The notes beneath the pieces were generated by a model, which worked only from the letters and a program-made list of their open reading frames with translations, was not told the origin of the DNA and searched no databases. Shown here in pieces: positions 6,228-22,847 of a stretch of DNA of 25,277 nucleotides. Each line of letters begins with the position of its first letter. Position 1 is the stretch's first letter. Both the position numbers and the translations under genes were made by a program. Source of the DNA: a virus (Duplodnaviria > Heunggongvirae > Uroviricota > Caudoviricetes); the IMG/VR virus record IMGVR_UViG_2737471859_000003; one strand, given 5' to 3'.

Positions 6228-6229
6228 TG

Positions 6230-7826: not shown

Positions 7827-7871
7827 TTTTTCTCTCCGTTACAGGCGGGCATGATGCCCGCCGTGAGTTGA

Positions 7872-8924
7872 TTAGCTGTCGGCGAACTTCAGGCCAGTGA
7901 CCATCGCGCACTTGCCATAGTCTTCAACGACATAAGCGTCATTGATGGACTGGTAGGTGGCGATGCGGTTGTATTCCGGTTCGTCTTTCATCAGACGACG
8001 CATTGAACCTTTCTGCCAGTAAATCGACAGGTTGTTGAACGAGGTGATCAGCATCGTTGAATCCGGGAAGAACGGCGCAAGGAACACGCCCAGCCCGCCA
8101 ATGGTGCGCGATGACAGAATGAGCTGCCCGGCGAGTAATTCCGCATTAGGATTCTGGCCGCTGATGCTGTTCAGCACGGGCAGACGCAGCGAGTTAAACA
8201 GGTTGCGCCCCATAATCACCACGAGGTCGTCAGCTTCCTTGTGCCATTCATCCAGCAGGGATGAGCGCGCGTCCTGTACCAGTGCATCAGCGTTCGCATA
8301 CTTACCCGCGTGCGCCACGGTGTTGTCCATGTTACGGGAGGTCAGCGTCACGTCATTCATAACGCGTTCGCTGGCGTCGGTTCTGATGTGCTCCAGCCAC
8401 CCCACGTTAACGTCCTGAAGCAACTTGTTGGTGCTGAAGTTGGACTCATCCGCGTGAGACGTGCCGTTGAAACCGATCATGATGCGGTCAAGCGCCACCT
8501 GTCGGGCAATCTGTGCGCTGATGCGGGACTGAAAATCAGGGTGTGCCGACCAGGCATCAAGCTGCGGATACGAAATAAACGTGTCGTAGTTCACCTGTTC
8601 ACACTGGTATTTGCGGTTTTTCAGATCAACCACGTTATTCGGGTTACGGCGTTTTGTGCCGTCATAACTGGTATTCGTGCGCGCAATCGGTCCTGTGGTA
8701 TCCAGGAGGATTTTTTCGCCTTTCTGGTCGGTCACGCCGATCACGTTAATTCTTTTCGTAAATTCGGTACTTTCCTTTGAGGCGTTTTCAAAACGCTGCT
8801 GCACCGCGGGTTCCACGGTAAATCGCGATACCAGTGCGGAAACCGGAATATTATTAAGCGACGCCTGCTGCGCCATATAGCAACCCAGCTTGTTGCGGGT
8901 AATATCTGACATCACCAGATTCAT
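7872..8924 (-). CDS. N: Major capsid protein, P2 gpN-like
   Basis: 350 aa; FTVEP, GEKI, NKYxC, YVVEDY and LSIY segments align with P2 gpN as I recall it. Confidence 0.9.
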   Translation of the reverse strand: MNLVMSDITRNKLGCYMAQQASLNNIPVSALVSRFTVEPAVQQRFENASKESTEFTKRINVIGVTDQKGEKILLDTTGPIARTNTSYDGTKRRNPNNVVDLKNRKYQCEQVNYDTFISYPQLDAWSAHPDFQSRISAQIARQVALDRIMIGFNGTSHADESNFSTNKLLQDVNVGWLEHIRTDASERVMNDVTLTSRNMDNTVAHAGKYANADALVQDARSSLLDEWHKEADDLVVIMGRNLFNSLRLPVLNSISGQNPNAELLAGQLILSSRTIGGLGVFLAPFFPDSTMLITSFNNLSIYWQKGSMRRLMKDEPEYNRIATYQSINDAYVVEDYGKCAMVTGLKFADS

Positions 8925-8947
8925 AAAAAATTTGCTCCTTTGTCTTA

Positions 8948-9784
8948 TCAGAAGTCAGCCAGCTGGTCGGAGGCTGCACCTGTTGCGGTGAACCGGTTCT
9001 GCGGATCGCCGTCCTGCGTGCGCAGTTTTTCCTTCAGTGCTGCCAGCTCTGTGGTCAGTGACGTAATTTTCTGGCGGTCCTGCTGATGGCGGGTTTCCAG
9101 CACATTAAAACGGTCGATAATGTCGGCCTGTGACGTTGCGACGCCTTCCACCGCTTCCTGAATACGGGAAAAACTGGCGTCATCCGCTTTGCGGCCACGG
9201 CCAATAATCCCCATTACGCGGTTAAACCACTGGGTGCCTTCTTCCTGGCGTTGTTCTGCCATTTCGATGATTTCAGACTCGATGGCTTCGGAGATAAGCG
9301 GCGCTTCACCCTGGACACTGTTGAACGTCATTACCGCCTGACGTTGCTGTGCCGTGAATTTCAGGCGCTCAGTGCCCAGGCTTGCCGGGGTGTCGGTCAT
9401 CGCCAGCCCGACCAGATAGGCGCGCCCGTTAACGGAGAACTGCGGGTGCAGTTCGATACTGGAATAGATTTTCTTGCCGTCCGCGACAAGCTGCTTCATG
9501 CGCTCGGTCGGTTCGATTTCTGCATACAGCGCAGTACGTCCGGCCAGCGGACCTTCCGTAATGTCTTCCGTACTCAGTGCGGTGACATCGCCCATTGCGG
9601 AAAATTCGCTTGACGGGCATGGCGAGAGATAGTGCTCAACGTTCACGCGGGCAGCGTAAACATCCGGGTTGAAGTTCTCGGCGGCTTCACGCAGATGCAC
9701 CGGACTGATTTCACGGCCATCAACAGTTGATCCGGAGACAGCCACGCGAAACTTTTTGCGGGATGTCTTTTTTTCATTAGCCAT
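8948..9784 (-). CDS. O: Capsid scaffolding protein, P2 gpO-like
   Basis: ORF frame 8948..9817; ATG at 9784 (MANEKKTSRKKFRVAVSGSTVDGREIS) aligns with the P2 gpO N-terminus and follows GAGGGG. Confidence 0.85.
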   Translation of the reverse strand: MANEKKTSRKKFRVAVSGSTVDGREISPVHLREAAENFNPDVYAARVNVEHYLSPCPSSEFSAMGDVTALSTEDITEGPLAGRTALYAEIEPTERMKQLVADGKKIYSSIELHPQFSVNGRAYLVGLAMTDTPASLGTERLKFTAQQRQAVMTFNSVQGEAPLISEAIESEIIEMAEQRQEEGTQWFNRVMGIIGRGRKADDASFSRIQEAVEGVATSQADIIDRFNVLETRHQQDRQKITSLTTELAALKEKLRTQDGDPQNRFTATGAASDQLADF

Positions 9785-9938
9785 AGTTTTTGCCCCTCTG
9801 ACTGGTTCTTCAGTCATGATGGCAAAGCGTAACAGGCTGATACAAAGGGCTTTTGTTGTAAGAAAACGGCCAGAACAGGGGGTTAAGGAGAACAGTTTCG
9901 CGCGCGGGTAATCTTCCTGTAATTACTCAGGGGGAGCA
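9785..9938. promoter_or_regulatory. Divergent late-promoter region between the O...H operon (minus) and the P-Q operon (plus)
   Basis: 154-bp non-coding gap between divergent starts, at the position of the Ogr-dependent P_O/P_P promoters in P2. I could not identify a clean TGT-N12-ACA activator site. Confidence 0.5.
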
Positions 9939-11690
9939 ATGATTCAGGACGCTTTTGTGCGCCAGCGTGCGCGGCAACTTTACTGGCAGGGTTATCCGCC
10001 CGCAGAAATATCACGTCTGATGGGAATAAACCCGAACACGATTTATGCGTGGAAAAAACGTGACCAGTGGGATGAAACGCCACCCGTGCAGCGTGTCACG
10101 CAGTCCATCGATGCGCGCCTCATCCAGCTTACTGAAAAACAGAATAAAACAGGCGGTGACTTTAAGGAAATAGACCTGCTGACCCGGCAGCTTAAAAAGC
10201 TGCATGATGGCCAGCCGGATGTGATGGCCGCAGGAAAGAAAGGCCGGGCGAAAAAACTCAAAAATCATTTCACGCCGGAACAGATTGCCGCACTGCGGGA
10301 AAAAATCATCAGCAGGCTGGAGTGGCATCAGCGTGGCTGGTTTGACTCCCTTACCCTTTGCAGGGAAGCCGGGATACGTAACAGGATGATCCTGAAATCC
10401 CGACAGATTGGGGCGACCTGGTATTTTGCACAGGAAGCACTGCTGATGGCGCTGCGTGACGATGTGGCGCAACCTTACCAGCGTAACCAGATTTTTTTGT
10501 CTGCGTCGCGTCGTCAGGCGTTCCAGTTTAAAAGCATTATTCAGAAGGCCGCGGCTGAAGTTGATGTGGAGCTGAAAGGGGGCGATAAAATCATCCTCTC
10601 AAACGGCGCAGAGCTGCATTTTCTCGGCACTTCTGCTGCGTCGGCACAGTCCTATACGGGCAATTTTTATTTTGATGAATTTTTCTGGGTCAGTCGCTTT
10701 GCTGAACTGCGCAAGGTGGCTGGCGCGATGGCAACCCTCAGCGGACTGCGGCGCACCTACTTCTCCACGCCATCCACCGAAACGCACGAGGCATACGCCT
10801 ACTGGAACGGCGACCGCTGGAACGAGAAAAAGGCCGCGCATAAACGCCAGCATTTTTCTGTGGACTGGAAAACGCTGCATAACGGGCTTATCTGCCCCGA
10901 CCGGACGTGGCGGCAAATTGTCACGCTGGAAGATGTGGTTAATCACGGCTGGAAACACACCGATATCGACGAAATTCGTGATGAAAACACCGAAGACGAG
11001 TTTCTCAATCTCTATATGTGTGAGTTTGTCCGCGAAGGGGAATCGGCATTTAACCTGAATATCCTGATTGGCTGCGGCGTTGACGGGTACGACGACTGGA
11101 AAGACTGGAAACCTTTTGCTCCCCGCCCGATGGGGAATCGTCCGGTATGGATTGGGTATGACGCAAACGGCAGCAGCGGCAACGGCGACAGCGGCGCTGT
11201 GTCCGTGGTGGTTCCTCCGGCTGTTCCTGGTGGCCGTTTTCGAACGGTGGAGACGCGACGCGTTCAGGGGCTGGAGTTTGAAGAACAGGCCAGAGTCATT
11301 GAAGAGTTCACGTATCGCTACAACGTGGAACACATCGGCATTGATGTGACGGGCGGGAACGGGGAGGCTGTTTATCAGATAGTGAAACGGTTTTTCCCTG
11401 CTGCTATTCCGTACACCTTCACGCTGTCATCAAAACGGTCGCTGGTACTGAAAATGCTGCAAATAATGCGTGCCGGGCGGTGGGAATACGATCGCGCCGA
11501 ACGCGAGCTGGTCGCGGCCTTTAACGCCGTGCGTAAGGTGAAAACACCGGGCGGCTTTATCACTTACGAAACGGACCGCGCGAGGGGGATCAGCCACGGC
11601 GACCTTGCGTGGGCAACCATGCTTGCTGTCATTAACGAACCGATTGGCGGCGAAGGAGAAAACGAGCGTTTCACGGTTATGGAGTTCTGA
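9939..11690 (+). CDS. P: Terminase large (ATPase) subunit, P2 gpP-like
   Basis: 583 aa (P2 gpP ~590 aa); GGGGGAG Shine-Dalgarno before ATG 9939; stop overlaps the Q start by 1 nt (TGATG). Confidence 0.9.
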   Translation: MIQDAFVRQRARQLYWQGYPPAEISRLMGINPNTIYAWKKRDQWDETPPVQRVTQSIDARLIQLTEKQNKTGGDFKEIDLLTRQLKKLHDGQPDVMAAGKKGRAKKLKNHFTPEQIAALREKIISRLEWHQRGWFDSLTLCREAGIRNRMILKSRQIGATWYFAQEALLMALRDDVAQPYQRNQIFLSASRRQAFQFKSIIQKAAAEVDVELKGGDKIILSNGAELHFLGTSAASAQSYTGNFYFDEFFWVSRFAELRKVAGAMATLSGLRRTYFSTPSTETHEAYAYWNGDRWNEKKAAHKRQHFSVDWKTLHNGLICPDRTWRQIVTLEDVVNHGWKHTDIDEIRDENTEDEFLNLYMCEFVREGESAFNLNILIGCGVDGYDDWKDWKPFAPRPMGNRPVWIGYDANGSSGNGDSGAVSVVVPPAVPGGRFRTVETRRVQGLEFEEQARVIEEFTYRYNVEHIGIDVTGGNGEAVYQIVKRFFPAAIPYTFTLSSKRSLVLKMLQIMRAGRWEYDRAERELVAAFNAVRKVKTPGGFITYETDRARGISHGDLAWATMLAVINEPIGGEGENERFTVMEF

Positions 11691-12736
11691 TGAGCAGAAA
11701 AAATAAAAAAGTGCGCATGAGTTCACGCATTGATCTCGCTGATGCGCTCAGGAAAGAATCATCGCTCAGTGCATTCACATTTGATGGTCCTTATCGCCTG
11801 ACCGGGCATGATCTGCTGGACAATATGTACTGTGCTGATAACGGGCGGTGGTATGAAACCCCGGTGGACTGGTACGGTCTGGCAAGAGCTGCCCGGCAAA
11901 CGTCCTGGCATCAGTCTGCGCTTTACTTTAAGCGCAATGTATTGCTCGGTTGCTACATCCCGCACCCGCTGCTTTCCCGGCAGGATTTCTCGGCGCTGGC
12001 GCTGGACTGGTTTGTGTTCGGTAACGCATTCCTTGAGCTTCGGAGCAATATGCTCGGCGAACCACTTAAATTACGGCACGCACTGGCGAAATACATGCGA
12101 CGCGGAAGCGATCTTGAATCATGGTGGTATGTGCAGGATGGCAAGGACGCGTTTCAGTTTCGCCCTGGCAAAGTGTGCCACCTGATGAATCCGGACATTA
12201 ACCAGGAAATTTACGGCATGCCGGAATATCTTGGCGCATTACTCTCGGCCAGCCTGTCTCATTCGGCGGACATGTTCAGAAAACTGTATTACGACAATGG
12301 ATCCCACGCCGGGTGCATCATCTACATCGGTGCAGCGCAGGTAAACCGCGAAAGCATGGACTCCCTGAAAGAAACGTTACAGGGTGCGCGTGGTGGTGGT
12401 GCGTTTAAAAACGTGCTCATCCATGCGCCCAACGGGGGCAAAGAGGGGGTGCAAATTTTGCCGTTCCAGCAGATCACCGCAAAGGATGAGTTCATGAATG
12501 TTAAGGCGGCATCCCGTGATGATGTGCTGGCTGCGCACCGCGTTCCGCCGCAACTGATGGGGGCGATGCCGGGCGAAAAAAGTGCGTTTGGTGATGTGGA
12601 GAAGGCAGCGCGGGTTTATGCAATTAACGAGCTGATGCCCGTAATGGAGGCCATGAAGCATATCAATGACTGGCTTGGCGAAGAGGTGATCCGTTTTAAC
12701 TCTTATGCTCTTCTTGATGAAAAAACAGCCCCGTGA
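11690..12736 (+). CDS. Q: Portal (capsid portal) protein, P2 gpQ-like
   Basis: 348 aa (P2 gpQ ~344 aa), directly downstream of P. Confidence 0.9.
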   Translation: MSRKNKKVRMSSRIDLADALRKESSLSAFTFDGPYRLTGHDLLDNMYCADNGRWYETPVDWYGLARAARQTSWHQSALYFKRNVLLGCYIPHPLLSRQDFSALALDWFVFGNAFLELRSNMLGEPLKLRHALAKYMRRGSDLESWWYVQDGKDAFQFRPGKVCHLMNPDINQEIYGMPEYLGALLSASLSHSADMFRKLYYDNGSHAGCIIYIGAAQVNRESMDSLKETLQGARGGGAFKNVLIHAPNGGKEGVQILPFQQITAKDEFMNVKAASRDDVLAAHRVPPQLMGAMPGEKSAFGDVEKAARVYAINELMPVMEAMKHINDWLGEEVIRFNSYALLDEKTAP

Positions 12737-12752
12737 TGGGGCTGTCCTTTTT
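12721..12752. terminator. Bidirectional rho-independent terminator shared by convergent Q and the 174-aa gene
   Basis: AAAAA-ACAGCCCC-GTGAT-GGGGCTGT-CCTTTTT: an 8-bp GC-rich stem with a 5-nt loop, flanked by an A-run and a T-run. The Q stop codon lies in the loop. Confidence 0.7.
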
Positions 12753-13275
12753 ACCAGAGTTGAACCATTTTCTGGGTGCCGTCAGGCTTGAGATTATCAA
12801 TTTCAGAGAGAACGTAATATTGAATGGCTTCACAAACGGTGGTGTAGGGTGAATTACCTTCTTTAAGTGGCACGATATTATTATTAACGCGAACCTGTAT
12901 TTCATCGTTATACATTGCGATCGAAACAGGAGTGTGTACGAACGCGACTTCGCCAGGTGTGTCGTCAACCACCGTTTCAATACTAAAAGTCAGTTTTCGC
13001 TCATCATTGCTGCCTCGTGCTTTGGGGGTAGCGGCAGGGATCTGGGATAAAGGCATTCTGCGAAATCCTTCGGCTGCTTCCAGTCCACATGAAACGTAAT
13101 GCTGGCGATTACCGTCGCTATCTGTCCAGGTCTGTGATGGCAGCTCCAGCGAGATTTCATAAGCATCAACAATGCCCTGGGCAAGGCGTACAAGCGGGGT
13201 CAGATCTTCATTGCGGCGAAAGCTCTCCTTTACCTGCTCCCGTTTTTCTCTTAACTGCTTGTAATTAATGACCAT
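12751..13275 (-). CDS. Hypothetical protein (174 aa), cargo gene of unknown function
   Basis: ATG at 13275 (MVINYKQLREKREQVK...) 8 nt after GGAGG; open for 174 codons; lower GC than flanking structural genes; no family recognised. Confidence 0.6.
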   Translation of the reverse strand: MVINYKQLREKREQVKESFRRNEDLTPLVRLAQGIVDAYEISLELPSQTWTDSDGNRQHYVSCGLEAAEGFRRMPLSQIPAATPKARGSNDERKLTFSIETVVDDTPGEVAFVHTPVSIAMYNDEIQVRVNNNIVPLKEGNSPYTTVCEAIQYYVLSEIDNLKPDGTQKMVQLW

Positions 13276-13376
13276 AAGACAGCCTCCATTGATTTCTTTG
13301 CTCGTATTTTGCACTTATGAAGTATGGTCGGCAAGGTGCCGTATCGCTGACGCGCTTCGCTTGTCTGCTGCTTCGC

Positions 13377-13401
13377 CGGGGCATAAAAAATTTATGCCCC
13401 G
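13377..13401. repeat. Perfect 25-nt palindrome CGGGGCATAAA-AAA-TTTATGCCCCG
   Basis: Read directly from sequence; 11-bp arms with a 3-nt centre, ~100 bp upstream of the 174-aa gene start. Function unknown. Confidence 0.5.
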
Positions 13402-13806
13402 ACTCTCCAGCTCCTGTATCAATCAGATAATTTCACGACGCCTTCCAGCTTATTGTCATCATCGACGGTCAGGCTCTTACGCAATCCCGCCGTGCTGACT
13501 GCATGTTCTCGTCGCCTCAGTGCGATTTTGACGGCCTTATCAGTCACCCCATCAAATCAAAAGCCCTCACGTATTTTTCACGCTCAGCGAGAGAAAGACA
13601 GCCATTCCGTTGTGTCGCTGCGACATCGTTCAGGGAATGCTGTTTACCCCCTGAAACGCGGGCTGTTCCCCCGTCACCTGCGCGCAGAAAAAGCGCGTTT
13701 TTTTGTGCACGCACGGATCCTTGACCGATCCAGCCGCCATGCGGGCCGGAAGGGCAAAAAGTCGTTCAAAAAAATTGTGCAAATTTGTGCGCTTTTGTGC
13801 AAAGAA

Positions 13807-13829
13807 ATGCCCCTCAAATTGAGGGGCAT
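13807..13829 (-). terminator. Putative terminator hairpin just downstream of the S8 protease gene
   Basis: Perfect palindrome ATGCCCCTCAA-A-TTGAGGGGCAT about 15 nt after the stop at 13844, followed on the minus strand by TTCTTTG. Confidence 0.5.
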
Positions 13830-13843
13830 TATGTCTTGAAGGA

Positions 13844-16069
13844 TTACGAACGAATAGGAATTGATGTTTGCGGTTGAATTGGCACGAGCACCTGATTATA
13901 AGTACGTAAAATTTCGTTATACAGGTCTTGGTGCTTTGATGCCTTAATGGTAATTATAAGAGCATACTTGATTTTTTCTGCCTTATGGCTGGCTATGCTT
14001 GCACCGGCCTCACGAGCGTTATAATGAATGTCAAATACAGGATTTTTTAGAGTTGAACCTAGCATGTTCTTCGAATTATGTAAGACGGTCTCCCATTTGC
14101 CCATGTCAGAACGTCGCTCACTTTCAGTTGAATATTTGGCCAGTTCAAAGAATCCCTTGGTTTCAGCATTTTGTTTTCCGTCTTTGATTTTTGAATCATT
14201 TGGCCGGAATGTCACTTCCAAACCAGCTTTTGTATAGGAAGCTGGGTCTTGTGGATCAGTGGTTGTTGCATAACAGAAAGTTGCCGCTAAGTTTATTCTA
14301 CCTTTCAAGCCACCTTCAGGTATTGGAAGAGGAGCGCGTAAGTATTTTCCTGGTTTCAATTCACCTTGGTAGACGATACGGGCAACACCATCAGGGCTGA
14401 CTATAATGTCGTTCAAGTCTTCAGGAAGTTTTCCCCAGCCAACTTCTGTACAAGGATGATCAAGCTGTTTTGACGCATGAATTAACAAAGCTTTGATTGC
14501 TAGTAGGCTCAAATCGTTCCCTAAAATTGCCCGAACACCAACAGCTGCTCGTAAGGCGTAAGGAGAGGCAAAGCTTGTTCCTAGCTGGGGTATGATTACA
14601 GGCTTCTTACCTTTACCTAAAACATGAAAGTACTCGTCTGTGTCACCACCAAACGCAACTAAATCCGGTTTCATCACGCCAGGACTTCTGCCTGGCCCAA
14701 TGGCGCTATATGGTGCTCGTTTCCATTCCGTATCATTAACTGTATCACAAGCACCAACAGCAAGAGCATTAACGCAATCGGCTGGTACTTGAATTCTTGC
14801 ATTACCAGACTTGCGATCCATTTCTCCATTGTTGCCAACAGCAACAGTCATTAATGTTTCACCATCACTTAACAAATCATCAATAACGGAAGTCCATGCA
14901 TGAACTTCCGTATCTTCAATTGGTAGGTCTGGACCTAAACTTAGATTGATAAACTGATACTGGCGAGACAACAATACCTCTTCAATAAAGCCCAAAGTTC
15001 GATATAGTTCCAGCGGATCTTCTTGGCAGGTCTTGTTGTCCAAAACTCTTAAGTTATCAATATAAGAGTATGGTCTTTTCGCTTCCGATTTATTACTTAT
15101 TGGTCCAAATAAAAAGGCTGAAGACACAGCTAAACCATGCTCTAAACCGTCTGGATCATCCTCTGCATGATCGTCCAAAACTCTATAGGATTTTAACCAT
15201 GGCGATATAGCGTGCTCTGATGGTAAACCACCATCAAGAATCGCAACTTTTATTTCTGAAGATACGGGGCCCTCAGCAGGCAATTTACACTGAGCTAAAG
15301 GACCGTAGTTCCTTTGTATTGGTCTAATCCCACGCAATCTTGGAACCGGTCTTATTACTCGTACAAATGTAAATTTCGCAAGCTTACTAATAGTAATTCT
15401 ATCGGCCTGGATTGGCACGAACCATAATGTACCAGCGGTAAAAGCTAATGAAGTATGTACTTTGATGTTCAAATTTGATGCAAACTGAACAAATTGTTGC
15501 TGAACCAAGTCTTGTTCATTATCTGGCAGTAAATGAACACCAACCTCAAAATACGAAGAATCCTGCTCACCAATGGTAATAATACGCTCTTCGGGTAAAT
15601 AGGCATCGAACCGTTCTATGCGTGCAAAATCAATCGCTTCGTCAGAAAACTCTTTGAGTCCTGACACCCAATGAGGTAACTCTTTGAAGGATTCTCTTTT
15701 ACCAGCAACAAACATTTGTGTCGTAGTTACTTCTGACACAGTAACTTTTCGCTTCCAGCTTTGAGGCGTAATTTTTACCGTCCTGCTGCCAATAGACGTT
15801 AACCCGGTAGACTTAAGCATTTTTGCAGGAAAAAAAGAGCGTGCAATATAGCTCGGATTCAACGTCAACTTAGCCACAGCATAATCATAAGGACATGCCT
15901 GACTGGGTAAATCATCAAAATTTTCTATAGTAGATGCAATTTGCGGCAATAACCGTTGTTTCGATTCGTAAAGAGAATAAACCTCAGCTTTTCCGGGCAC
16001 TCTTTTAGGACCAGGAATATCGCTGGTTAATAATTCGCCGCGTCCAATCAGAAAATTAGTTTTCGCCAT
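13844..16069 (-). CDS. Subtilisin-like (peptidase S8) serine protease, 741 aa, with N- and C-terminal extensions of unknown function; tentatively IetS-like
   Basis: Catalytic triad motifs in subtilase order: Asp in VAILDGG, His in EHGLAVSS, Ser in GTSFASP. AAGGAG Shine-Dalgarno 5 nt before the ATG. AT-rich codon usage unlike the phage backbone. Confidence 0.8.
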   Translation of the reverse strand: MAKTNFLIGRGELLTSDIPGPKRVPGKAEVYSLYESKQRLLPQIASTIENFDDLPSQACPYDYAVAKLTLNPSYIARSFFPAKMLKSTGLTSIGSRTVKITPQSWKRKVTVSEVTTTQMFVAGKRESFKELPHWVSGLKEFSDEAIDFARIERFDAYLPEERIITIGEQDSSYFEVGVHLLPDNEQDLVQQQFVQFASNLNIKVHTSLAFTAGTLWFVPIQADRITISKLAKFTFVRVIRPVPRLRGIRPIQRNYGPLAQCKLPAEGPVSSEIKVAILDGGLPSEHAISPWLKSYRVLDDHAEDDPDGLEHGLAVSSAFLFGPISNKSEAKRPYSYIDNLRVLDNKTCQEDPLELYRTLGFIEEVLLSRQYQFINLSLGPDLPIEDTEVHAWTSVIDDLLSDGETLMTVAVGNNGEMDRKSGNARIQVPADCVNALAVGACDTVNDTEWKRAPYSAIGPGRSPGVMKPDLVAFGGDTDEYFHVLGKGKKPVIIPQLGTSFASPYALRAAVGVRAILGNDLSLLAIKALLIHASKQLDHPCTEVGWGKLPEDLNDIIVSPDGVARIVYQGELKPGKYLRAPLPIPEGGLKGRINLAATFCYATTTDPQDPASYTKAGLEVTFRPNDSKIKDGKQNAETKGFFELAKYSTESERRSDMGKWETVLHNSKNMLGSTLKNPVFDIHYNAREAGASIASHKAEKIKYALIITIKASKHQDLYNEILRTYNQVLVPIQPQTSIPIRS

Positions 16070-16092
16070 ACATACTCCTTATCTATGCTGTA

Positions 16093-17214
16093 TTACATTT
16101 TTTGACTGTATTTTCTAATTGTATCCCTACTGACTCCGGTTAAGTCTGATATGGCATGCTGGGATAATTTAGAATTTCTTTTTAGAGTAACTGCAATTTC
16201 TTTACGTTCATTCCTGTCTAATTCTGATAAACCATCTTTAATGAACGACCCAATCAACTCTTCATCTGAGGAAATACCTAAAGCGACCGAACGTCGGAAT
16301 TTGTTGATAGAACGCTCAATATTACTAAAAGATTCATTTTTGAACATAATAGCCAGTAGATCTATCCAACGTGCAAAAATCGCGTAGTCGGGACCTGAAA
16401 AGCGTTTAATTGCTTCTTTAATACTTTCGCTATCTGGCTTCTCAAAATTGAGCACTAAATCAAAACGTCTCCATAGTGCTGGATCAATCAACTCAGCGAA
16501 GTTAGTTGCAGCAAGTAACAAACTAGAAGACGGCCATTCGTCAACCTCCTGGAGTATTACGGTAACAAGTCTTTTTAATTCTCCAACATCAGAATCATCA
16601 CTTCTCTTTTTGGCGATTGAATCAATTTCATCTAACAGAAGAACGCACGGCCCTTTCTTCGCAAAATCTAGAGCTGCCCGAAGGTTATTTCCGCTTTTGC
16701 CCAGATAGCTGCTCATTACTGCCGTTAAATCAAGAACGTAAAAAGGAACCCCTAATTTCTGAGCTAACCAGCTTGCCGTAAGTGTTTTACCTACACCCGG
16801 AGGGCCAACAAAAATGGCAGAGCGTGTTGGTTGTAAGCCGAGAGTCTTGAGGCGATCGATGTGCTTCCGCTCAAGAATAATTTGATCCAGTGAGTCTTCT
16901 ATCTGACTGGACAGTAGAGGTTTGCTCACAATCTTTTCATTTGGTGCTTTAAGCAAGGTAAGCCTTGACTCCTCGTCCACAGGCATGGTTTGAGGCAGCG
17001 CTTGTTTTGGTGCGGTAACCTTACGCAGGCTTTGTGCAGGCTTTTGCGGTTTATTTCGTAGATAAAGATCAAGCTGCTCGGATAGAGCAGGCATAGTTTC
17101 CCGATATTTACGCACCAAGCGAGCGACATATAACCGAACGTCATCATACTGTTCAGTTATTACCAGTCTAACTAGTTGGGCTAAATCTGACTGAATACCA
17201 CCTAAGTCGCCCAT
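16093..17214 (-). CDS. Classical AAA+ ATPase, 373 aa; tentatively IetA-like
   Basis: Walker A GPPGVGKT, Walker B LLLDEID, sensor-1 / second-region-of-homology LLLAATNFAELIDPALWRRFD. The extreme C-terminus LSQHAISDLTGVSRDTIRKY looks like a helix-turn-helix. 23-nt gap to the protease gene suggests an operon. Confidence 0.8.
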   Translation of the reverse strand: MGDLGGIQSDLAQLVRLVITEQYDDVRLYVARLVRKYRETMPALSEQLDLYLRNKPQKPAQSLRKVTAPKQALPQTMPVDEESRLTLLKAPNEKIVSKPLLSSQIEDSLDQIILERKHIDRLKTLGLQPTRSAIFVGPPGVGKTLTASWLAQKLGVPFYVLDLTAVMSSYLGKSGNNLRAALDFAKKGPCVLLLDEIDSIAKKRSDDSDVGELKRLVTVILQEVDEWPSSSLLLAATNFAELIDPALWRRFDLVLNFEKPDSESIKEAIKRFSGPDYAIFARWIDLLAIMFKNESFSNIERSINKFRRSVALGISSDEELIGSFIKDGLSELDRNERKEIAVTLKRNSKLSQHAISDLTGVSRDTIRKYSQKM

Positions 17215-17394
17215 CTTAACTGTAACCTCTTGATTTTAAGTGAATTGAAAAAGCATTTAACTGGACTATTTATAGTATTGCACTTTTTTATCAAACAGGG
17301 AAGAGGAATACTATATGAAATTACAGTGTGCCTCATGGAACGTCCTTACCATGTCTAAACTCTACCTTCATACAATTGATGATTTCTTTCTTGG
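17215..17394 (-). promoter_or_regulatory. AT-rich spacer between gene A and the ATPase gene; probable promoter region of the ATPase-protease operon
   Basis: 180-bp AT-rich non-coding stretch; minus strand contains TTGATA...TATAAAT-like hexamers ~55 nt upstream of the ATPase ATG, but the spacing is suboptimal. Confidence 0.3.
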
Positions 17395-20178
17395 TTATTT
17401 TTTCTTCTCGCTATTGCCTTTGTCCTGCAACAGACCCGCCTTGTGACGTGCGCGTTCAGTGGTTTCATTGATTCTCTGTGCGTGCTCTGCGTCACGGATG
17501 GCGCGCAGCATGTCAGAAAGCACGGTAACGGGAGTTTTCATGGTGTTCTGGTCCTGCTGAATTGTGGATGCCAGGCGTGCAGCGGCTTCAGGGTCTGATG
17601 CCCCGAGCTGTTTCAGATAGCTGGAAACCGGGTTATGGCGGATTTCCGTGCTGTTTACGCCGTGATTACGGCTCAGGCGCTGCCAGAGCTGCGTGATTCG
17701 GCTGTCCGGTCGGGTATCTGGTTTGCGTACAATTTCAAATCCCTGCGGTGCAATGATGCTGCCGTCAACGTACAGACTGCCGCCTCGTAACAGGTGCTGC
17801 ATCTGCTGTTCACCGATATGCAGGCCGAGAGATTCGGCAGATTCCCGCCATTCTTTAGCGAGTAATTCGTGGTTATCAGGCAAAGGCCGCTGCTGTTTGC
17901 GGCTCTGTGTCCAGCTCTGCATTTCATCACTGCTGTTTTTTGCCTGTTTGTCACGAAGCGAACGCATCAGCGCCCGGCGTTCGTGCCGTTTCAGTGAGCG
18001 CATCCATTCGTTCACTTCAACGCCGTCAGGGAGCTGCGGCCACGGTGCTGGCCGTTCTTCCGGCTGTTCTGTCCCGTTGTTGTCCGTTTCCTGTACACGG
18101 GGACAGTTATTGCCACGAGTCCAAGGGGCGGCAGAGCCGCCCTGAAGGTCAAAACCATTTTCGTGGGTGCTGTCTTCCGCTTCCGGTTTACGTCTTACCA
18201 GCTTCCAGTTATCCGGGTGCGTGCACACACGGGAGGATTCCCCGATGAGTGGCGACCAGATCCCGTAAATCTGTACACTCTGTTCGCCGTAATCGTTCAG
18301 CTCATCTGCGAGGTCGTAGGCTGTGCGAATCAGGTAGTCCTTGCGCGGAACAAGTACGCCACCCTGTTTTTCAATGTAGGTGGCAAAACACCCGGCATCA
18401 GCGGCAGCAAGAACCGCATCCATTGCGTCATCCTTCAGCCGTTGCGGGCCCTCCGGGTTGCGTGCCATCTGGCTGGCAAGGCGGCGGAGTTCACGCCACA
18501 CCTGACGGGAGGGGATGCCAAAGAACTGGAACTGGCGGACCCGGTGAAGGCGCGCCCAGCCGATGGCGCGCTCCACGCTCTCGGCCATTGATTTTCCGGT
18601 TTCGTGGTCAACGCGTGGCTTGCCCGTTTTCGGGTCGATGCCATCTACGGCGCGGCTGTCCAGGTTTTTTCCGATGTAGGTCGCGATATAGCTGGTTGGT
18701 GTGCCTTTTGAGCCGTCGACATACTCCGCCTTAAAGCGCGGAGTAATATCATCGCCCAGTTCGTGACGATCTTCCTGAATGGCAATATCGCGGGTGATGG
18801 CCACGATGCTGTCGATTTCTTCCGGATGAGCAAAGACCATCATATGCCAGTGCACGGTGCCGTCATGGTGAGGCTCCACCGTGCGGATGCCATACCAGCG
18901 CAGGCCGTCGCGGTTCAGTTTTTTGCGGACCGCCGCAAAAAACGTGTTAACCAGGTAATCGCTGGAGTCGCGCATGGTGGCCCCGTTCCATTTGGGATTC
19001 GGATGACCGTTCTCCGTTGTTGCGTGGTATTTTGACGGGCAGGTGACAGTCAGAAACACCGCTTTGTCACCACGGGCTTCGGCCAGAAGTTCCAGCCCCT
19101 TCATGGTGGCCATCATTTCTGCCTTACGGTGAACCGGGTTACTTACTCCCGCGTAATACACTGTCTCGAGATCAATCGTGAACCCGTCTTCATTTTCCAG
19201 CATGAAACTTTTCAGGAAATCGCGTGTTTTCTCGCGCTGTGCGCGAAATTCACTTAATGCGTCCTGGCTCAGATAGGGTGATGTTTTTCTGGAAACCAGA
19301 CAGGCGGCGCGAAGTTGTTCTTCTCTCCACTCGCAACGTAAAAGCCACAGTTTGCGTTTCCACCATTCCGCACAGGTCAGGCGAAGGATTGCACCCGGCA
19401 GCAGTTCCGTGTCCGGTTCGTTCCTCCGGTCTTTGTCTGTTGTCAGTGCGTCATAATGCGGAGGCATGGCGTGCAGGTGTAACGCCATGCGGGCCAGCAT
19501 CTGATACGCCTTCAGCGTTACATCCATGGTCAGCTCGCCATCAGTCGCACCAAAGCCATCGCAGAGCTTTTCGAAGGTGCTGCTGAACATCGCCGCCGTC
19601 ATGGTGGCCAGCGTCTGTATCTGGTGTTTGTTGAGCTGCGGCAGGTAAAGCAAATCGTCCAGGCGTTCGCGTCCGGCAATGGAGCGATAACCCGGTGTCA
19701 GCCAGCGGCTGTCGGTGCGGTCCAGACGTCCGAATATTTTGCGCAGGGTTCCGCGTGCATAGCGTTCCGCCTGCCAGCTCTTTTTGCCTTTCTGGCGATC
19801 GGCTTCCTGTTTTTTGCGCAGGAAAGAGAGGTGGCGGCTCAGTGGTTCACGCAGATAAACAGGTAGTGCCTTTAGTGTGGCAAAGGCACGGGCTACCGGG
19901 TCTTGTTCTGTTGCCCGGCGCTTACTGATGATGCTCTGTGCCAGCTTTTCACGCTGTCCGGCTTCCTCAAGGGATGCCATGAGTTTTTTACCCATGGCGG
20001 ATTGTGCGAAAAAGGCTTCTTCCTTCGCTTCCTGTTCTTCCTGTGCCCTTTTGTCCGCCTCAAGGTAGTAACGGATGGCGCGTTGCAGGTCGGTTTCAGT
20101 TTCCTGCCTGCGCTCCGTAAATCTGGCCGGATCAATGGCTGGCCGTGGTTCATTCCAGCTCCATGCAAACTCACTCAT
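17395..20178 (-). CDS. A: Replication initiation endonuclease (rolling-circle, HUH-type), P2 gpA-like
   Basis: ATG at 20178 (MSEFAWSWNEP...) overlaps the upstream gene stop (ATGA). HUH motif in TVHWHMMVF and paired tyrosines in SYIATYIGKN, as in P2/phiX174 A proteins. ~927 aa versus ~761 aa in P2. Confidence 0.8.
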   Translation of the reverse strand: MSEFAWSWNEPRPAIDPARFTERRQETETDLQRAIRYYLEADKRAQEEQEAKEEAFFAQSAMGKKLMASLEEAGQREKLAQSIISKRRATEQDPVARAFATLKALPVYLREPLSRHLSFLRKKQEADRQKGKKSWQAERYARGTLRKIFGRLDRTDSRWLTPGYRSIAGRERLDDLLYLPQLNKHQIQTLATMTAAMFSSTFEKLCDGFGATDGELTMDVTLKAYQMLARMALHLHAMPPHYDALTTDKDRRNEPDTELLPGAILRLTCAEWWKRKLWLLRCEWREEQLRAACLVSRKTSPYLSQDALSEFRAQREKTRDFLKSFMLENEDGFTIDLETVYYAGVSNPVHRKAEMMATMKGLELLAEARGDKAVFLTVTCPSKYHATTENGHPNPKWNGATMRDSSDYLVNTFFAAVRKKLNRDGLRWYGIRTVEPHHDGTVHWHMMVFAHPEEIDSIVAITRDIAIQEDRHELGDDITPRFKAEYVDGSKGTPTSYIATYIGKNLDSRAVDGIDPKTGKPRVDHETGKSMAESVERAIGWARLHRVRQFQFFGIPSRQVWRELRRLASQMARNPEGPQRLKDDAMDAVLAAADAGCFATYIEKQGGVLVPRKDYLIRTAYDLADELNDYGEQSVQIYGIWSPLIGESSRVCTHPDNWKLVRRKPEAEDSTHENGFDLQGGSAAPWTRGNNCPRVQETDNNGTEQPEERPAPWPQLPDGVEVNEWMRSLKRHERRALMRSLRDKQAKNSSDEMQSWTQSRKQQRPLPDNHELLAKEWRESAESLGLHIGEQQMQHLLRGGSLYVDGSIIAPQGFEIVRKPDTRPDSRITQLWQRLSRNHGVNSTEIRHNPVSSYLKQLGASDPEAAARLASTIQQDQNTMKTPVTVLSDMLRAIRDAEHAQRINETTERARHKAGLLQDKGNSEKKK

Positions 20179-20564
20179 GGCTGGTATCCCGTCACGCGCT
20201 GCCACTCCTGCGAGAAGATGGCGGAAAGGCGGTTAAATTCAGCGGTGTATTCACTCAGCGAGGCACACCCGCCAGCAGTGCGATGCGCCAGCATTGCCGC
20301 AAATACGGAGGCCGGGGAGTCATAATACGCCAGCAGTGATTCGCCGTGTGGTGTCAGGCAGTGCAACGCCAGCCCGTGTGGTGTGAAATCCACGCGGTAG
20401 CAGTCGTCTACTGTGAAATAAAGGGTGTCCGCATTCTCCGGTTTTGTGGTGCGTGCTCTGTTGTCACGACCACGGATGTAGAGATCAAATAATCCCTGAA
20501 GAATGGGAGCCAGACGGGTGTCCTGTGTGCGCACCCATCTTGTGAAGTCATGAGCGTCAATCAT
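20175..20564 (-). CDS. Hypothetical early-operon protein (129 aa)
   Basis: ATG start; stop overlaps the A start codon, implying translational coupling; no family recognised. Confidence 0.55.
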   Translation of the reverse strand: MIDAHDFTRWVRTQDTRLAPILQGLFDLYIRGRDNRARTTKPENADTLYFTVDDCYRVDFTPHGLALHCLTPHGESLLAYYDSPASVFAAMLAHRTAGGCASLSEYTAEFNRLSAIFSQEWQRVTGYQP

Positions 20565-20636
20565 GCTGCAATTCTCTTTACTACAGGTGTGCGAAGGCCT
20601 CCCGCCGCAAGGTGCAGGAAAGGCCTGGAACAGGAA

Positions 20637-20867
20637 TTAATGGAGTTTGTTTTGCTGCTGAAAGAGCTGCTGAAGCTCGCGCAGATCATCCGCCAGATAG
20701 CTGAAAACAGCGGATGAATAGAGGTTTGAAAGTTCGCAGCTACGCTCATGCAGCATATTGATGTGCATGATTTTAGCGACGCGGAATGCGCGGGAAAGTC
20801 TGCGGTTGATTTCAGTCTGGATGTGACGACGCTCCGCGATAGCGCGGTGCTGTTTGCGGTTTGCCAT
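20637..20867 (-). CDS. Hypothetical small basic protein (76 aa)
   Basis: ATG at 20867 with an AGAGG upstream; the overlapping 206-aa track ORF in another frame is low-complexity and was rejected. Confidence 0.5.
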   Translation of the reverse strand: MANRKQHRAIAERRHIQTEINRRLSRAFRVAKIMHINMLHERSCELSNLYSSAVFSYLADDLRELQQLFQQQNKLH

Positions 20868-21192
20868 GGTGTTTGGCCTCTTCGTTTGTGAGTTTTTGGA
20901 TACTCACCAACCAGAGTTGAGAATCTCGGGGTGGCGAGACGTACGGGGTTCTCAACACCGGCAAACGAAGAAACCGGCCCGACCGAAGTCGGCCCCGTAC
21001 GCCCCACCATAATTCGTGTGCGAAAAAGACGTGGCAATACAGTACGCACAAAAAAACCGCTGGCGCGGTTGTGCGCTTCGTTTGTCAGCAGGTTGAGAAT
21101 CCCGGCACCCGTTTTATGAGGTGCAGCAGAAATGTAACCTGACTGATTGCGGCATGGCAAGCGGTTTTTTTGTGTGTGCATGCTCTGATTTC
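20868..21192. other. ~325-bp structured non-coding region in the early operon (candidate regulatory site or small RNA)
   Basis: GTTGAGAATCYCGG occurs at ~20916 and ~21092 as a direct repeat; the first copy pairs with GTTCTCAAC at ~20949; GTACGGGG and CCCCGTAC are inverted ~45 nt apart; an imperfect long hairpin around AACCGCTGGCGCGGTT lies at ~21045-21075 next to A/T runs. Confidence 0.4.
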
Positions 21193-21492
21193 TTACTGGT
21201 TCAGAAAAAAATCAAAAACCTTGTCAATGCGTTGCAACAGCTCTTGCTGTATTGCTTCCGGCGTTTCCGGTTCGCCTGGCGCCTCCAATGTCGCGCAGAA
21301 ATCAGCGATTTCATGATGGAGCGTCAGGCGAATGGCAGGAGCCGTGGTTCTGGCGTGCTCCAGCTCATCCAGCAATGCCAGCACCGCAGACGGCGAGAGC
21401 ATTGCGCGAAATGCCAGTAATTTTTGAGGTGTTGCCATTCGTTGCAGGGCAAATGCCAGTTCGCGTAGCTTCTGGTGGTTGATGGTGCTCAT
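21193..21492 (-). CDS. Hypothetical early-operon protein (99 aa)
   Basis: ATG start; start overlaps the stop of the upstream 88-aa gene. Confidence 0.5.
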   Translation of the reverse strand: MSTINHQKLRELAFALQRMATPQKLLAFRAMLSPSAVLALLDELEHARTTAPAIRLTLHHEIADFCATLEAPGEPETPEAIQQELLQRIDKVFDFFLNQ

Positions 21493-21755
21493 GTTCTGGC
21501 TTCCTTCAGTAGCTGGTTAAACATGTGAGTCAGTGGATTGCTACACCCGAACGGCATCGGGTTTACGTGGTAAGAAGCCTGGCCTCCAGTTTTGCGAGCG
21601 CGACCACCTGTGCTGCGGTTTGTTCTGATGACTAAGCCGCCGCGCCAAAGTTGGCGTAACTCAGCATTAATGGCTGTGGTTGGAGTATTCAGTGCTGCTG
21701 CGATTTCTCCGCCGCTACAACCCGGATGGGTAGCGATGTAGTCCAGAATGGTCAT
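21489..21755 (-). CDS. Putative small DNA-binding protein (88 aa)
   Basis: N-terminus MTILDYIATHPGCSGGEIAAALN resembles winged-helix regulator N-termini (impression only); ATGA overlaps with both neighbours. Confidence 0.45.
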   Translation of the reverse strand: MTILDYIATHPGCSGGEIAAALNTPTTAINAELRQLWRGGLVIRTNRSTGGRARKTGGQASYHVNPMPFGCSNPLTHMFNQLLKEART

Positions 21756-21955
21756 CTGCGTGGCTCCTGTACCTGTCGGATAAGATTCACCCGCGCCACG
21801 TTGGTGGCGCAGAAATAAGTGCCGTCAGTGAGGTAGATGTGGTGTGCATCCTTTTCCGAACGATGTTTGTCGATAGTGGTAATCAGTCGTTCGTCGACCT
21901 CGTATTCGCGCCCTCTGGAGGTAAAGCGAACGACGGGAAAATGCTTAATTGCCAT
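21752..21955 (-). CDS. Hypothetical small protein (67 aa)
   Basis: ATG at 21955 preceded by AAGGGGGG. Confidence 0.5.
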   Translation of the reverse strand: MAIKHFPVVRFTSRGREYEVDERLITTIDKHRSEKDAHHIYLTDGTYFCATNVARVNLIRQVQEPRR

Positions 21956-21979
21956 TGCGCCCCCCTTTGTCCAGTAACC

Positions 21980-22390
21980 CTATGCGTTAAATACGGTGTG
22001 TCGGGCGTCATCAATGAATGCAACTTGAGAGCGCTCTATCAGGCGGAGATTTGTCAGAAGCGCTGATTCCCTTATGGGGTGAGGAGTGATCAGGTATTTG
22101 TCCTGTAATCCGGCAATAATGGTGTATCGCTGTAGCTCCGAGCCAATTGTGTAAATAAGGCGTCCGGTGTTAGATAAATCCAGTCCGGTGACTGGTTGAG
22201 TTTTGAAAAGCGTAAGTTCCGCACCCTGTTCTTCGATGATTTTGGCGGCTTCTGCCGTGACTTTTGCGACTATCATTGTGTGGGTCGCGACGTCTATATG
22301 ATTATTTGCTACGGCTTTTTTCGCTACTTCGCTTTCCATCTTTGAAATTTCTTTCAGTGCTCTGATGATACCTTCTTCTTTTGCGTGCAT
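21980..22390 (-). CDS. Hypothetical protein (136 aa), AT-rich moron-like gene
   Basis: ATG at 22390 preceded by GGAGA; lower GC than neighbouring genes; followed by an AT-rich non-coding stretch. Confidence 0.55.
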   Translation of the reverse strand: MHAKEEGIIRALKEISKMESEVAKKAVANNHIDVATHTMIVAKVTAEAAKIIEEQGAELTLFKTQPVTGLDLSNTGRLIYTIGSELQRYTIIAGLQDKYLITPHPIRESALLTNLRLIERSQVAFIDDARHTVFNA

Positions 22391-22483
22391 TTTTGTATCT
22401 CCGTTATCTGCGTGTGCGAATACCTCCGTTAATACGGATGGTTTTCACGTTTTCTTATTTAATTTGATGTTTTATTTGTATCG

Positions 22484-22597
22484 TTATTCACCAGTGAAAA
22501 AACGTTCAATCTTTTTTACTGAATGAATAATTCGCATAATCCCAATGGCGCAGGCCACTGAAATAATCAGAGCAAGCCATGAAATAAATATACTCAT
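22484..22597 (-). CDS. Small hydrophobic peptide (~37 aa, single predicted TM helix), below the ORF-track length cut-off
   Basis: ATG at 22597..22595 overlaps the stop of the 80-aa gene (ATGA); by-eye translation MSIFISWLALIISVACAIGIMRIIHSVKKIERFFTGE. End coordinate approximate. Confidence 0.4.
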   Translation of the reverse strand: MSIFISWLALIISVACAIGIMRIIHSVKKIERFFTGE

Positions 22598-22836
22598 GCG
22601 ATATTCCCCAGCTTATACGGTTCAATATGTTCCCCGCATTCTGCGGCACAGATTAGCTCGGAAAGTTCGTTAAGTGCATCCAGATCATCAGCGTAAAAAG
22701 CCACGTCATACAGACTCCGGATTGCCCTGGTCAATGAGTCACGGGCTGCACGTTCAGCATGAGCGCCTGATGCACTTAAGCGAAAATAAAAACGCTCAAG
22801 TGCTTTGTTAATGAGAGTTTTATATTCTTTGCCCAT
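22594..22836 (-). CDS. Hypothetical protein (80 aa)
   Basis: ATG start with an AAGGG upstream. Confidence 0.5.
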   Translation of the reverse strand: MGKEYKTLINKALERFYFRLSASGAHAERAARDSLTRAIRSLYDVAFYADDLDALNELSELICAAECGEHIEPYKLGNIA

Positions 22837-22847
22837 CGCAACGCCCT

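Follow-up and report, generated by a model that had tools for sequence, protein, structure and literature searches.

The window analyzed here, a 25,277-nucleotide stretch of Caudoviricetes DNA (IMG/VR record IMGVR_UViG_2737471859_000003), holds an AT-rich, 3.6-kb segment at 13804-17430 (minus strand) that was swapped as one cassette into an otherwise conserved phage backbone. This segment very probably is an ietAS defence cassette placed in the gpA-gpQ hotspot of a P2-like prophage, with an anti-phage role that would be exerted through a protease toxin and an ATPase antitoxin. From this analysis, the basis for that reading is the composition, the breakpoints, the membership in profile families, the catalytic motifs, the population distribution and the prior cataloguing of the locus. 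The window is a P2-like E. coli prophage of the P88/Xuanwuvirus type. The backbone DNA is 92-97% identical to P88-like phages and the gene order is the one found in annotated relatives.

Results

Composition of the window

An AT-rich island between the portal gene and the replication gene had been predicted by eye at 12737-17394, and the computed values agree with it. GC is 0.430 in this interval versus 0.555 in the backbone on its left (1-12711) and 0.554 in the backbone on its right (17431-21964). In windows of 500 bp, GC is 0.37-0.45 across 13751-17250 and 0.53-0.61 in the structural genes. The core at 13804-17430 has a GC of 0.411, which relative to the backbone corresponds to z = -17.4 (binomial). 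Outside the island, no 3371-bp window with a GC below 0.46 was found in the whole stretch. The A/T-rich codons remarked upon in the protease and ATPase genes are measurable as well, GC3 being 0.321 in ietS and 0.350 in ietA versus 0.59-0.68 in the structural genes; in gpA it is 0.615. Codon usage in ietA and ietS diverges from the backbone with a JSD of 0.10-0.12. Thirteen of 14 backbone genes fall between 0.02 and 0.08, the exception being a 206-aa regulator ORF at 0.108. The segment can be told from its flanks by both sliding-window GC and codon usage.

The interval 12737-17394 is, however, three separate things rather than one island: an accessory module at 12712-13346, a conserved block at 13347-13803, and the cassette itself from 13804 to about 17430. 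The edges had been predicted to coincide with the stops of gpQ and gpA. On the right this is essentially correct: homology to other prophages comes back within the gpA gene, about 10-14 codons from its 3' end. On the left it is not, because the 635-bp module (GC 0.468) and the 457-bp conserved block (GC 0.525) intervene; the swapped, strongly AT-rich unit starts about 1.07 kb from the gpQ stop at 12737.

Flanks of the cassette

The portal gene gpQ (11690-12736, plus strand) is the conserved left flank of the hotspot and not cargo. It matches Pfam Phage_portal at 8.3e-18, has a GC of 0.528 and a GC3 of 0.593, and is named 'phage portal protein' by RefSeq in strain M1/5. A terminator scan found a terminator-like hairpin directly after the gpQ stop (12725-12745, plus strand), with a 9-bp stem containing six GC pairs and then a T-run. 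Between gpQ and the cos block, the module at 12712-13346 is present in the related prophages L001 and L002 and absent from L003, L004 and L012. In the latter three, 12711 is joined to 13347 via about 21 bp of other sequence. The module is 99.4% identical to that of strain M1/5, the neighboring backbone being 93-98% identical, and is a second accessory module that is independent of the ietAS cassette. Its 174-aa hypothetical ORF (12751-13275, minus strand; RefSeq WP_000236495) extends to 13314 in the longest ORF reading.

The block at 13347-13803 carries the packaging (cos) region and belongs to the backbone, not to the cargo. It was found in every related prophage examined: it is 94-96% identical in L003 and L004, forms part of the continuous match of L002 and has matches in L011 and L012 too. 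For the linear phage record NC_049391 (P88_4B11), both ends map between 13756 and 13757, 47 bp from the cassette. The 19-nt cos sequence of P2 was not found, either exactly or with up to three mismatches. In a local alignment with the circularised P2 junction, the best resemblance to this 19-nt cohesive end is weak (13/19, at 13660-13678). Both candidate cos positions lie in the conserved block and at most 150 bp from the cassette.

On the other side, the gpA replication endonuclease (17395-20205, minus strand; Pfam Phage_GPA, 2.5e-131) is the conserved right flank. Its last 10-14 codons or so (17395-17437) belong to the swapped segment, and the C-terminal tail of gpA varies with the cargo. 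Here the protein ends in ...LLQDKGNSEKKK followed by the stop; L002, L003 and L004 each have a different tail.

Comparison of the slot among prophages

Other E. coli prophages carry unrelated genes in the same slot: ParM/partition genes in L002, a KAP NTPase in L003, and an AAA ATPase with a Dam methylase in L004. The portal and gpA flanks are 96-98% identical in these prophages despite the differing cargo, as expected from the earlier proposal that the island is cargo, acquired horizontally by a phage whose backbone is conserved. BLAST comparison with the three prophages carrying other cargos placed the breakpoints at 13801-13807 and 17424-17438. The conserved block terminates in a triple TTGTGCA motif (13775-13803), and in the four junctions compared (the window, L002, L003 and L004) the cargo variants diverge directly 3' of it. 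Because all cargo variants split right after the motif, it probably marks the left recombination junction. Besides the two genes, the cassette includes a putative promoter region of its own, a terminator-like hairpin and the gpA tail. The alignment to related prophages thus confirmed a swapped slot, but the slot is not the only variable part: the module at 12712-13346 varies independently of it, the block at 13347-13803 is conserved, and mosaicism extends to further parts of the prophage.

Only short, chance-level direct or inverted repeats flank the island. ORF, profile and Pfam searches found no transposase or integrase gene within it, no tRNA or tmRNA gene was found in the whole stretch, and an Rfam search of 12600-17600 returned no match. 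Transposition or site-specific insertion of the cassette was considered and rejected, there being no flanking repeats beyond chance level.

Distribution among E. coli genomes

To place the locus among sequenced strains, 5426 complete E. coli genomes were searched. With 11000-19000 as the query, 2475 of them gave a match, and only 42 covered at least 80% of it (flanks and cassette). The cassette is carried by 44 genomes, and in 43 of these the match spans 80% or more of it with no less than 99% identity. None of the complete E. coli genomes matches the whole stretch; the best reaches 89% coverage at 96.8% identity. The identity of the cassette in the 43 genomes is 99.5-100% versus about 96-97% for the surrounding backbones, suggesting that the cassette spread recently. 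In strain M1/5, where the locus is 98.4% identical, the cassette is 99.72% identical and the flanks 93-98%.

The early/immunity/integrase end of the window (21965-25277) is a second part with lower GC (0.457), so GC alone is no proof of acquisition. The low GC could instead be intrinsic to native phage genes, being regulatory, H-NS-silenced or set by expression level, with the segment then part of the ancestral backbone. We consider this very improbable: about 98% of the genomes sharing the flanks lack the segment and have unrelated genes between the same breakpoints instead. The cassette is moreover better conserved than its flanks, with relatives that are found on plasmids as well as in phages of distant taxa. 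A native-backbone origin of the low-GC segment is already refuted by these comparative data.

Broken copies of the cassette also occur. In strain E06 the protease gene is interrupted by ISKpn26, one genome retains a 41% fragment, and a cassette homologue on an Enterobacter plasmid is split by ISEc52. Such copies would fit a decaying remnant without present function. That reading is highly unlikely for the cassette in the window, where neither ORF is truncated and every catalytic motif is present, and 43 genomes keep the cassette nearly unchanged.

The ATPase and protease genes

The first gene of the cassette, ietA (16093-17214, minus strand), encodes a 373-aa AAA+ ATPase with a C-terminal HTH (RefSeq WP_000502620). 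Residues 9-372 match positions 5-370 of the 374 in the PADLOC IetA profile PDLC02196, its full length, at 1e-77, and Pfam AAA matches at 2.6e-30. The Walker A motif (GPPGVGKT, 137-144), Walker B motif (LLLDEID, 192-198), sensor-1 (N238) and Arg finger (RR, 249-250) are intact. The HTH-type matches, at residues 333-372, are weak; the ATPase is labeled AAA/HTH_50 in the tables of Rousset et al. (PMC9122126). A search of the PDB found no solved IetA structure, the closest entries being generic AAA modules of the Cdc48/p97 type.

Directly downstream and in the same orientation is ietS (13844-16069, minus strand), encoding a 741-aa subtilisin-like (S8) serine protease (RefSeq WP_001556981). The gap between the two genes is 23 bp, which implies an operon. 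IetS residues 36-726 match positions 38-733 of the 749 in the PADLOC IetS profile PDLC02197 (6.7e-52, near full length), and residues 271-546 match Pfam Peptidase_S8 at 2.5e-19. D279, H311 and N413 align to D32, H64 and N155 of subtilisin E, and the GTSFASP motif gives S499; the Asp/His/Ser triad and the oxyanion Asn are thus intact. A search of the PDB found no solved IetS structure and matched only subtilisins (E about 1e-4). Homologues of IetS are widespread on plasmids, including those of Agrobacterium. The closest match in a plasmid record outside the Enterobacteriaceae is an Agrobacterium plasmid IetS, 54% identical and with the same order of ATPase then protease.

Given the order and orientation of the genes and the near full-length matches of both proteins to the IetA and IetS profiles, the cassette appears to encode the two-gene IetAS anti-phage/toxin-antitoxin system, with IetA as the ATPase and IetS as the protease. 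The best-matching NCBIfam families for the pair are likewise IteA and IteS. Neither protein reaches the equivalog cut-off of its model: IteA_antiphage (NF042959) matches IetA at 5.2e-66 with 223 bits, below the 510-bit cut-off, and IteS_antiphage (NF042956) matches IetS at 9.3e-40 with 137 bits, below the 900-bit cut-off. Their RefSeq names are generic ('AAA family ATPase' and 'S8 family peptidase'). IetA shares only 43% identity with the representative of the variant common at the hotspot, system 7. By its NCBIfam scores, the pair is a diverged subfamily rather than an equivalog of the model seeds. Because the variant is diverged from both the NCBIfam models and the common variant, we infer the activity of the cassette by homology.

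A protease and an ATPase could also be phage morphogenesis or replication functions, a prohead protease and a packaging or remodelling ATPase, that are AT-rich by chance. Both genes lie next to the portal and terminase genes and the cos region, and both proteins belong to PHROG families that recur in phage genomes (IetS matches phrog_3964 at 2.8e-255). However, most related prophages do without these genes, which are therefore dispensable, and a full P2-type head module (gpO scaffold, gpN capsid, gpM and gpP) is already present, in agreement with annotated relatives. The best profile matches of the two proteins are to models of defence systems, and we regard a morphogenetic or replicative role as extremely improbable.

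Signals around the gene pair

Upstream of ietA is an intergenic leader (17215-17394, minus strand) with a GC of 0.328. It contains a promoter-like TTGATA-18-AATAGT at 17294-17265, and AGAGG precedes the ietA ATG by 10 nt. A promoter scan found eight promoter-like sites in the scanned region, not above chance (8.9 expected), so the ietA promoter in 17215-17394 is proposed as a putative one only.

A terminator-like hairpin specific to the cassette (13806-13830, minus strand) lies 14 nt downstream of the ietS stop. Its RNA folds at -21.4 kcal/mol (z = -4.9), and none of 200 shuffles folds as well. The consensus terminator scan missed this hairpin because its T-tract is weak (UUUCUUUG). The hairpin that L002 has at the corresponding position is a different one.

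Discussion

The gpA-gpQ, cos-adjacent hotspot for accessory genes in E. coli P2-like phages has been described (Rousset et al. 2022, Cell Host Microbe, PMC9122126). Table S5A of that study contains the arrangement WP_000502620, WP_001556981 and WP_000236495, the same three accessions with which the locus of strain M1/5 is annotated. Table S5B gives system 7 as 'ietAS (Gao et al, 2020)', with 400 of 18,150 loci (PMC9122126). System 7 occupies the same site with the same AAA/HTH ATPase, Peptidase_S8 and small hypothetical ORF as found here, but its representative is of a different lineage, and ietAS was without an experimental test in that work. In the published arrangement the small ORF is part of the system, whereas here it belongs to an independent module on the opposite side of cos. 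The hotspot, the IetAS system and the exact gene arrangement are thus already published, and biologically nothing is new in them.

In phage P2 the genes orf91, tin and old lie between A and cosR. The old/tin locus shares with the ietAS cassette the slot between gpA and cosR, the direction relative to gpA and the presence of lysogenic-conversion genes that exclude other phages. The proteins differ: in P2, Old is a nuclease/ATPase of the OLD family, Tin is a protein that blocks T-even phages, and neither is related to IetA or IetS. The backbones differ as well, Peduovirus in P2 and P88-like (Xuanwuvirus) here, and the 19-nt cos of P2 is not conserved in the window.

As in the IetAS systems known from Gao et al. 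2020, PADLOC and NCBIfam and in those of B. cereus and E. coli ECOR52 assayed by other groups, the ATPase gene precedes that of the S8 protease, and the catalytic triad and Walker motifs are intact, though the scores are well below the equivalog cut-offs. The ietHAS variant has a helicase as a third gene (PMC13069673), which is absent here. The first description of ietA/ietS was as a toxin-antitoxin pair for plasmid stability, the system of Agrobacterium pTiC58 (Yamamoto et al. 2009, J Bacteriol). That system consists of the same two proteins and follows the same principle, with a protease toxin and an AAA-ATPase antitoxin; it is carried by a plasmid, while the carrier here is a temperate phage and the role expected of the pair would be lysogen defence. 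[quoted passage not shown] For one IetAS homologue, abortive infection is set off by a phage protein (10.1101/2022.08.27.505566).

On this background, the cassette most likely arrived via homologous recombination within conserved flanking sequence, the cos block to its left and the gpA 3' end to its right. Expression of the pair in the lysogen would start from the putative AT-rich promoter of the cassette. IetS, the subtilisin-like protease, would be the toxic effector, and IetA, Cdc48-like and with a C-terminal HTH, would restrain it. A protein of an infecting phage may then release or activate the protease, and the activated IetS would halt the cell or kill it while the phage cycle is still incomplete. 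Such abortive infection would protect the clonal population of lysogens and therefore the prophage. The toxin and antitoxin roles and the abortive infection in this scheme are taken from the literature.

Alternatively, the cassette may mainly serve addiction (post-segregational killing) and so stabilise the prophage, or an episomal form of it, rather than act against phages. This would be consistent with the first description of ietAS as a plasmid-stability pair and with the many IetS homologues on plasmids. ParM-type partition genes occupy the identical slot in about one quarter of P2-like phages and may permit plasmid-like maintenance (Rousset et al., PMC9122126). In addition, E. coli ietAS cloned from ECOR52, for which a location in a prophage was noted, gave limited protection on its own (10.1101/2022.08.21.504612). 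Defence by IetAS homologues has nonetheless been shown experimentally, with the phage trigger known for one of them, and the two roles are not exclusive. We consider it unlikely that addiction is the main role.

Beyond the preferred reading of a defence cassette, IetAS may have a second role in the addiction to, or maintenance of, the prophage. As a plasmid-derived toxin-antitoxin pair it would then be functionally interchangeable with ParM/partition genes as one of the 'stay-in-the-cell' modules of an episomally persisting phage, with defence as a by-product. Separately, the diverged IetAS lineage may sense a different trigger, and the 174-aa ORF might be accessory, either anti-defence or immunity-like. 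We offer these extensions as speculation and hold them to be rather doubtful.

The trigger, the substrates of the protease and the stabilisation of the carrier are questions of the whole IetAS family, not of this locus. For one hotspot, breakpoints are now given to the base pair, after the triple TTGTGCA motif that ends the cos block and inside the last gpA codons. A simple compositional reading was able to pick out defence cargo in a prophage.

Composition and boundaries of the island

Between the portal gene gpQ (11690-12736, Pfam Phage_portal) and the P2-type replication endonuclease gene gpA (17395-20205, Phage_GPA, 2.5e-131), the original prediction placed an AT-rich island at 12737-17394, with edges at the gpQ and gpA stops. 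The composition was borne out. In a sliding-window profile, GC is 0.53-0.61 in the structural genes, drops to 0.37-0.45 over about 13.75-17.25 kb and is back at 0.56-0.59 in the replication gene. Computed GC is 0.430 for the predicted island versus 0.555 for the left (1-12711) and 0.554 for the right (17431-21964) backbone. The core (13804-17430) is lower still at 0.411 (binomial z = -17.4 against the backbone), and no 3371-bp stretch with GC below 0.46 lies outside the island in the 25,277-nt window. Third-position GC is 0.321 and 0.350 in the two large island genes, compared with 0.59-0.68 in the head, tail and terminase genes and 0.615 in gpA. In codon usage the two cargo genes diverge from the backbone with JSD values of 0.117 and 0.100, against 0.02-0.08 for 13 of 14 backbone genes. 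These computed values confirm the by-eye GC estimate and the A/T-rich codon runs.

The island is, however, a composite; its composition had been read correctly and its left boundary wrongly. Pairwise BLAST against prophages sharing the flanks divides it into a 635-bp module with one 174-aa ORF (12712-13346, GC 0.468), a backbone block conserved in every relative compared (13347-13803, GC 0.525) and the segment actually swapped (13804 to about 17430). The left edge was thus about 1.07 kb off, while the right edge held, with the junction 10-14 codons inside gpA. P88-like (Xuanwuvirus) phages match the surrounding backbone at 92-97% identity.

Mapped onto the window, the linear phage record NC_049391 begins and ends at 13756|13757, and the best resemblance to the P2 cohesive end, a weak one, is at 13660-13678. 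Because both fall in the block 13347-13803, it probably contains the packaging site (cos), with these positions as candidate cuts. At the left junction all variants are alike through a triple TTGTGCA motif (13775-13803, TTGTGCAAATTTGTGCGCTTTTGTGCAAA) and diverge directly after it; in each one examined, this motif closes the conserved block of the cos region. It may serve to bind terminase or a host factor, or mark a recombination boundary.

At the right junction homology restarts 10-14 codons ahead of the gpA stop, so each cargo brings its own gpA C-terminal tail. The last 10-30 or so codons of gpA (3' end, 17395-17437) are cargo-dependent, placing the right recombination junction inside gpA; the tail in the window ends ...LLQDKGNSEKKK*, and three related prophages with other cargo (L002-L004) have three other tails. 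This tail appears dispensable or variable. Repeat, ORF/domain, tRNA and Rfam searches found no flanking repeats, transposase, integrase, tRNA or Rfam element at the cassette, which makes homologous recombination in the conserved flanks the likeliest route of exchange.

The 635-bp module, which lies between gpQ and the cos block, is present in L001 and L002 and cleanly absent from L003, L004 and L012, all related prophages. It co-occurs with different hotspot cargos (IetAS in the window, ParM in L002), and its 99.4% identity to strain M1/5 is above that of the surrounding backbone. Its minus-strand ORF (12751-13275; WP_000236495, phrog_5091) belongs to a narrow family found only in Enterobacteriaceae, with no annotated domain. 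Its AF2 model, of moderate confidence, starts with two helices, continues with an antiparallel sheet and ends in a helix; the fold matches are generic only.

The cassette encodes a diverged IetAS pair

The gpA-gpQ hotspot beside cos was already defined by Rousset et al. 2022, with 18,150 loci and 1,650 arrangements (PMC9122126). Their curated Table S5B lists "Peptidase_S8 | AAA" as system 7 (400 loci), labelled "ietAS (Gao et al, 2020)", and one arrangement has three RefSeq proteins identical to those of the 98.4%-identical M1/5 locus (PMC9122126). The cassette in this hotspot is therefore already known.

Two co-oriented minus-strand genes, 23 bp apart, make up the cassette. The 373-aa product of ietA (16093-17214) matches PADLOC IetA over its full length (1e-77) and Pfam AAA; its PDB matches are Cdc48/p97-type AAA modules, the Walker A, Walker B, sensor-1 and arginine-finger motifs are present, and the C-terminus has weak HTH-type matches. 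The 741-aa product of ietS (13844-16069) matches PADLOC IetS over nearly its full length (6.7e-52) and Pfam Peptidase_S8, with D279, H311 and N413 aligned with subtilisin catalytic residues and S499 in a GTSFASP motif. Downstream of ietS is a strong hairpin (13806-13830, -21.4 kcal/mol, z = -4.9). The 180-bp leader upstream of ietA (32.8% GC) has a promoter-like site; such sites were no commoner in the scanned region than chance predicts.

The best NCBIfam matches are the "IteA" and "IteS" anti-phage equivalogs, far under their curated cut-offs (223 bits against 510 and 137 against 900), and IetA shares only 43% identity with the sequence that represents the commonest variant in the hotspot. 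Judging from these values, the cassette is a diverged branch of the IetAS family and not a copy of a tested system.

Distribution and horizontal acquisition

We surveyed 5426 complete E. coli genomes with window 11000-19000 as query. Matching sequence was found in 2475, only 42 of which cover at least 80% of the query (flanks and ietAS cargo). The cassette alone is in 44 genomes, always chromosomal and in single copy, at 99% identity or more in 43; among the matches listed it usually adjoins the replication endonuclease gene. ParM/partition genes, a KAP NTPase, or an AAA ATPase with a Dam methylase fill the same slot in relatives, and in phage P2 orf91, tin and old occupy its equivalent.

Against M1/5 the cassette is 99.72% identical and the flanking backbone 98.1%, 93.4% and 96.6%. 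Several carriers have 99.8-99.9% identity in the cassette versus about 96-97% across the prophage, and the cassette alone reaches 100% identity in strains STEC384 and STEC379. The whole window was not found in any one complete E. coli genome of the collection (best match 89% coverage, 96.8% identity); one cassette thus sits in several diverged backbones. This comparison of flanks and cargo supports the proposal of a horizontally acquired cassette in a conserved phage backbone.

In strain CFSAN051542 (L010, NZ_CP020835, 4001-7373) the same gpQ-gpA slot holds an ietAS variant of roughly 85% DNA identity. The P2-like backbone there is clearly different: its gpA is shorter, and Dam and exonuclease genes lie downstream. 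If the system 7 representative, at 43% identity, is counted too, at least three IetAS lineages use the hotspot. More distant homologues of IetS are carried by an Enterobacter phage, by a Pseudomonas Pf phage and by Paenibacillus phages, as well as by plasmids from Agrobacterium, Rhizobium, Streptomyces and others, with the gene order unchanged. Inactivated ietS copies exist in related loci (NZ_CM143910, H61; NZ_CP077515, H87; NZ_CP077309, H99). ISKpn26 interrupts ietS in strain E06, an O111:H8 strain has just 41% of the cassette left, and a 607-kb Enterobacter hormaechei plasmid encodes an 89.7%-identical IetS split by ISEc52.

Replacement is not confined to the island, a point that the original prediction had suggested checking: the tail-fibre tip, early-gene patches and the immunity/integrase module also differ among relatives, the IetAS block being the largest and lowest in GC. 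In the distal tail-fibre region (1-730 and 1255-1616) homologues are absent or 73-80% identical in related prophages, the usual host-range mosaic. The S103EC prophage (L011) has an extra 1.9-kb gene, annotated as coding for a DUF6645 domain protein, between a tail gene and the lysis genes (4491-6368), where the window has just 93 unmatched bp (4932-5024); this interval looks like a second cargo slot, empty here. Phage P88_4B11 and prophage L012 have other sequence in place of a small lower-GC segment (21965-22409, 0.454), which may be a further moron in the early-gene region. Its minus-strand 136-aa protein (21980-22390, phrog_9338) has no match in an NCBIfam search. The cox-like, repressor and integrase end (23489-25277) is unlike the modules of relatives and has a GC of about 0.46, so the island is not the sole AT-richer part of the window. 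Integrases of relatives adjoin dmsA (L011) and pdxB (L012), which means that the site of integration changes along with the module.

Possible role of the cassette

[quoted passage not shown] Anti-phage defence, needing protease activity, was shown later, and its mechanism "remains unknown" as of 2026 (PMC13069673). For a Bacillus homologue, expressing one phage protein is enough for toxicity, and liquid-culture behaviour is consistent with abortive infection (10.1101/2022.08.27.505566). The prophage-borne ietAS of E. coli ECOR52, when cloned, had limited activity alone (10.1101/2022.08.21.504612). From these findings on homologues we infer, by analogy, that the cassette may be a lysogenic-conversion abortive-infection module. 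IetA would restrain IetS in the absence of incoming phage, and a protein of the incoming phage would release the IetS protease.

To the known hotspot our analysis makes small additions: the cassette breakpoints to the base pair, the 174-aa ORF as an independent module across cos from the cassette, and a gpA tail and a terminator that are specific to each cargo.
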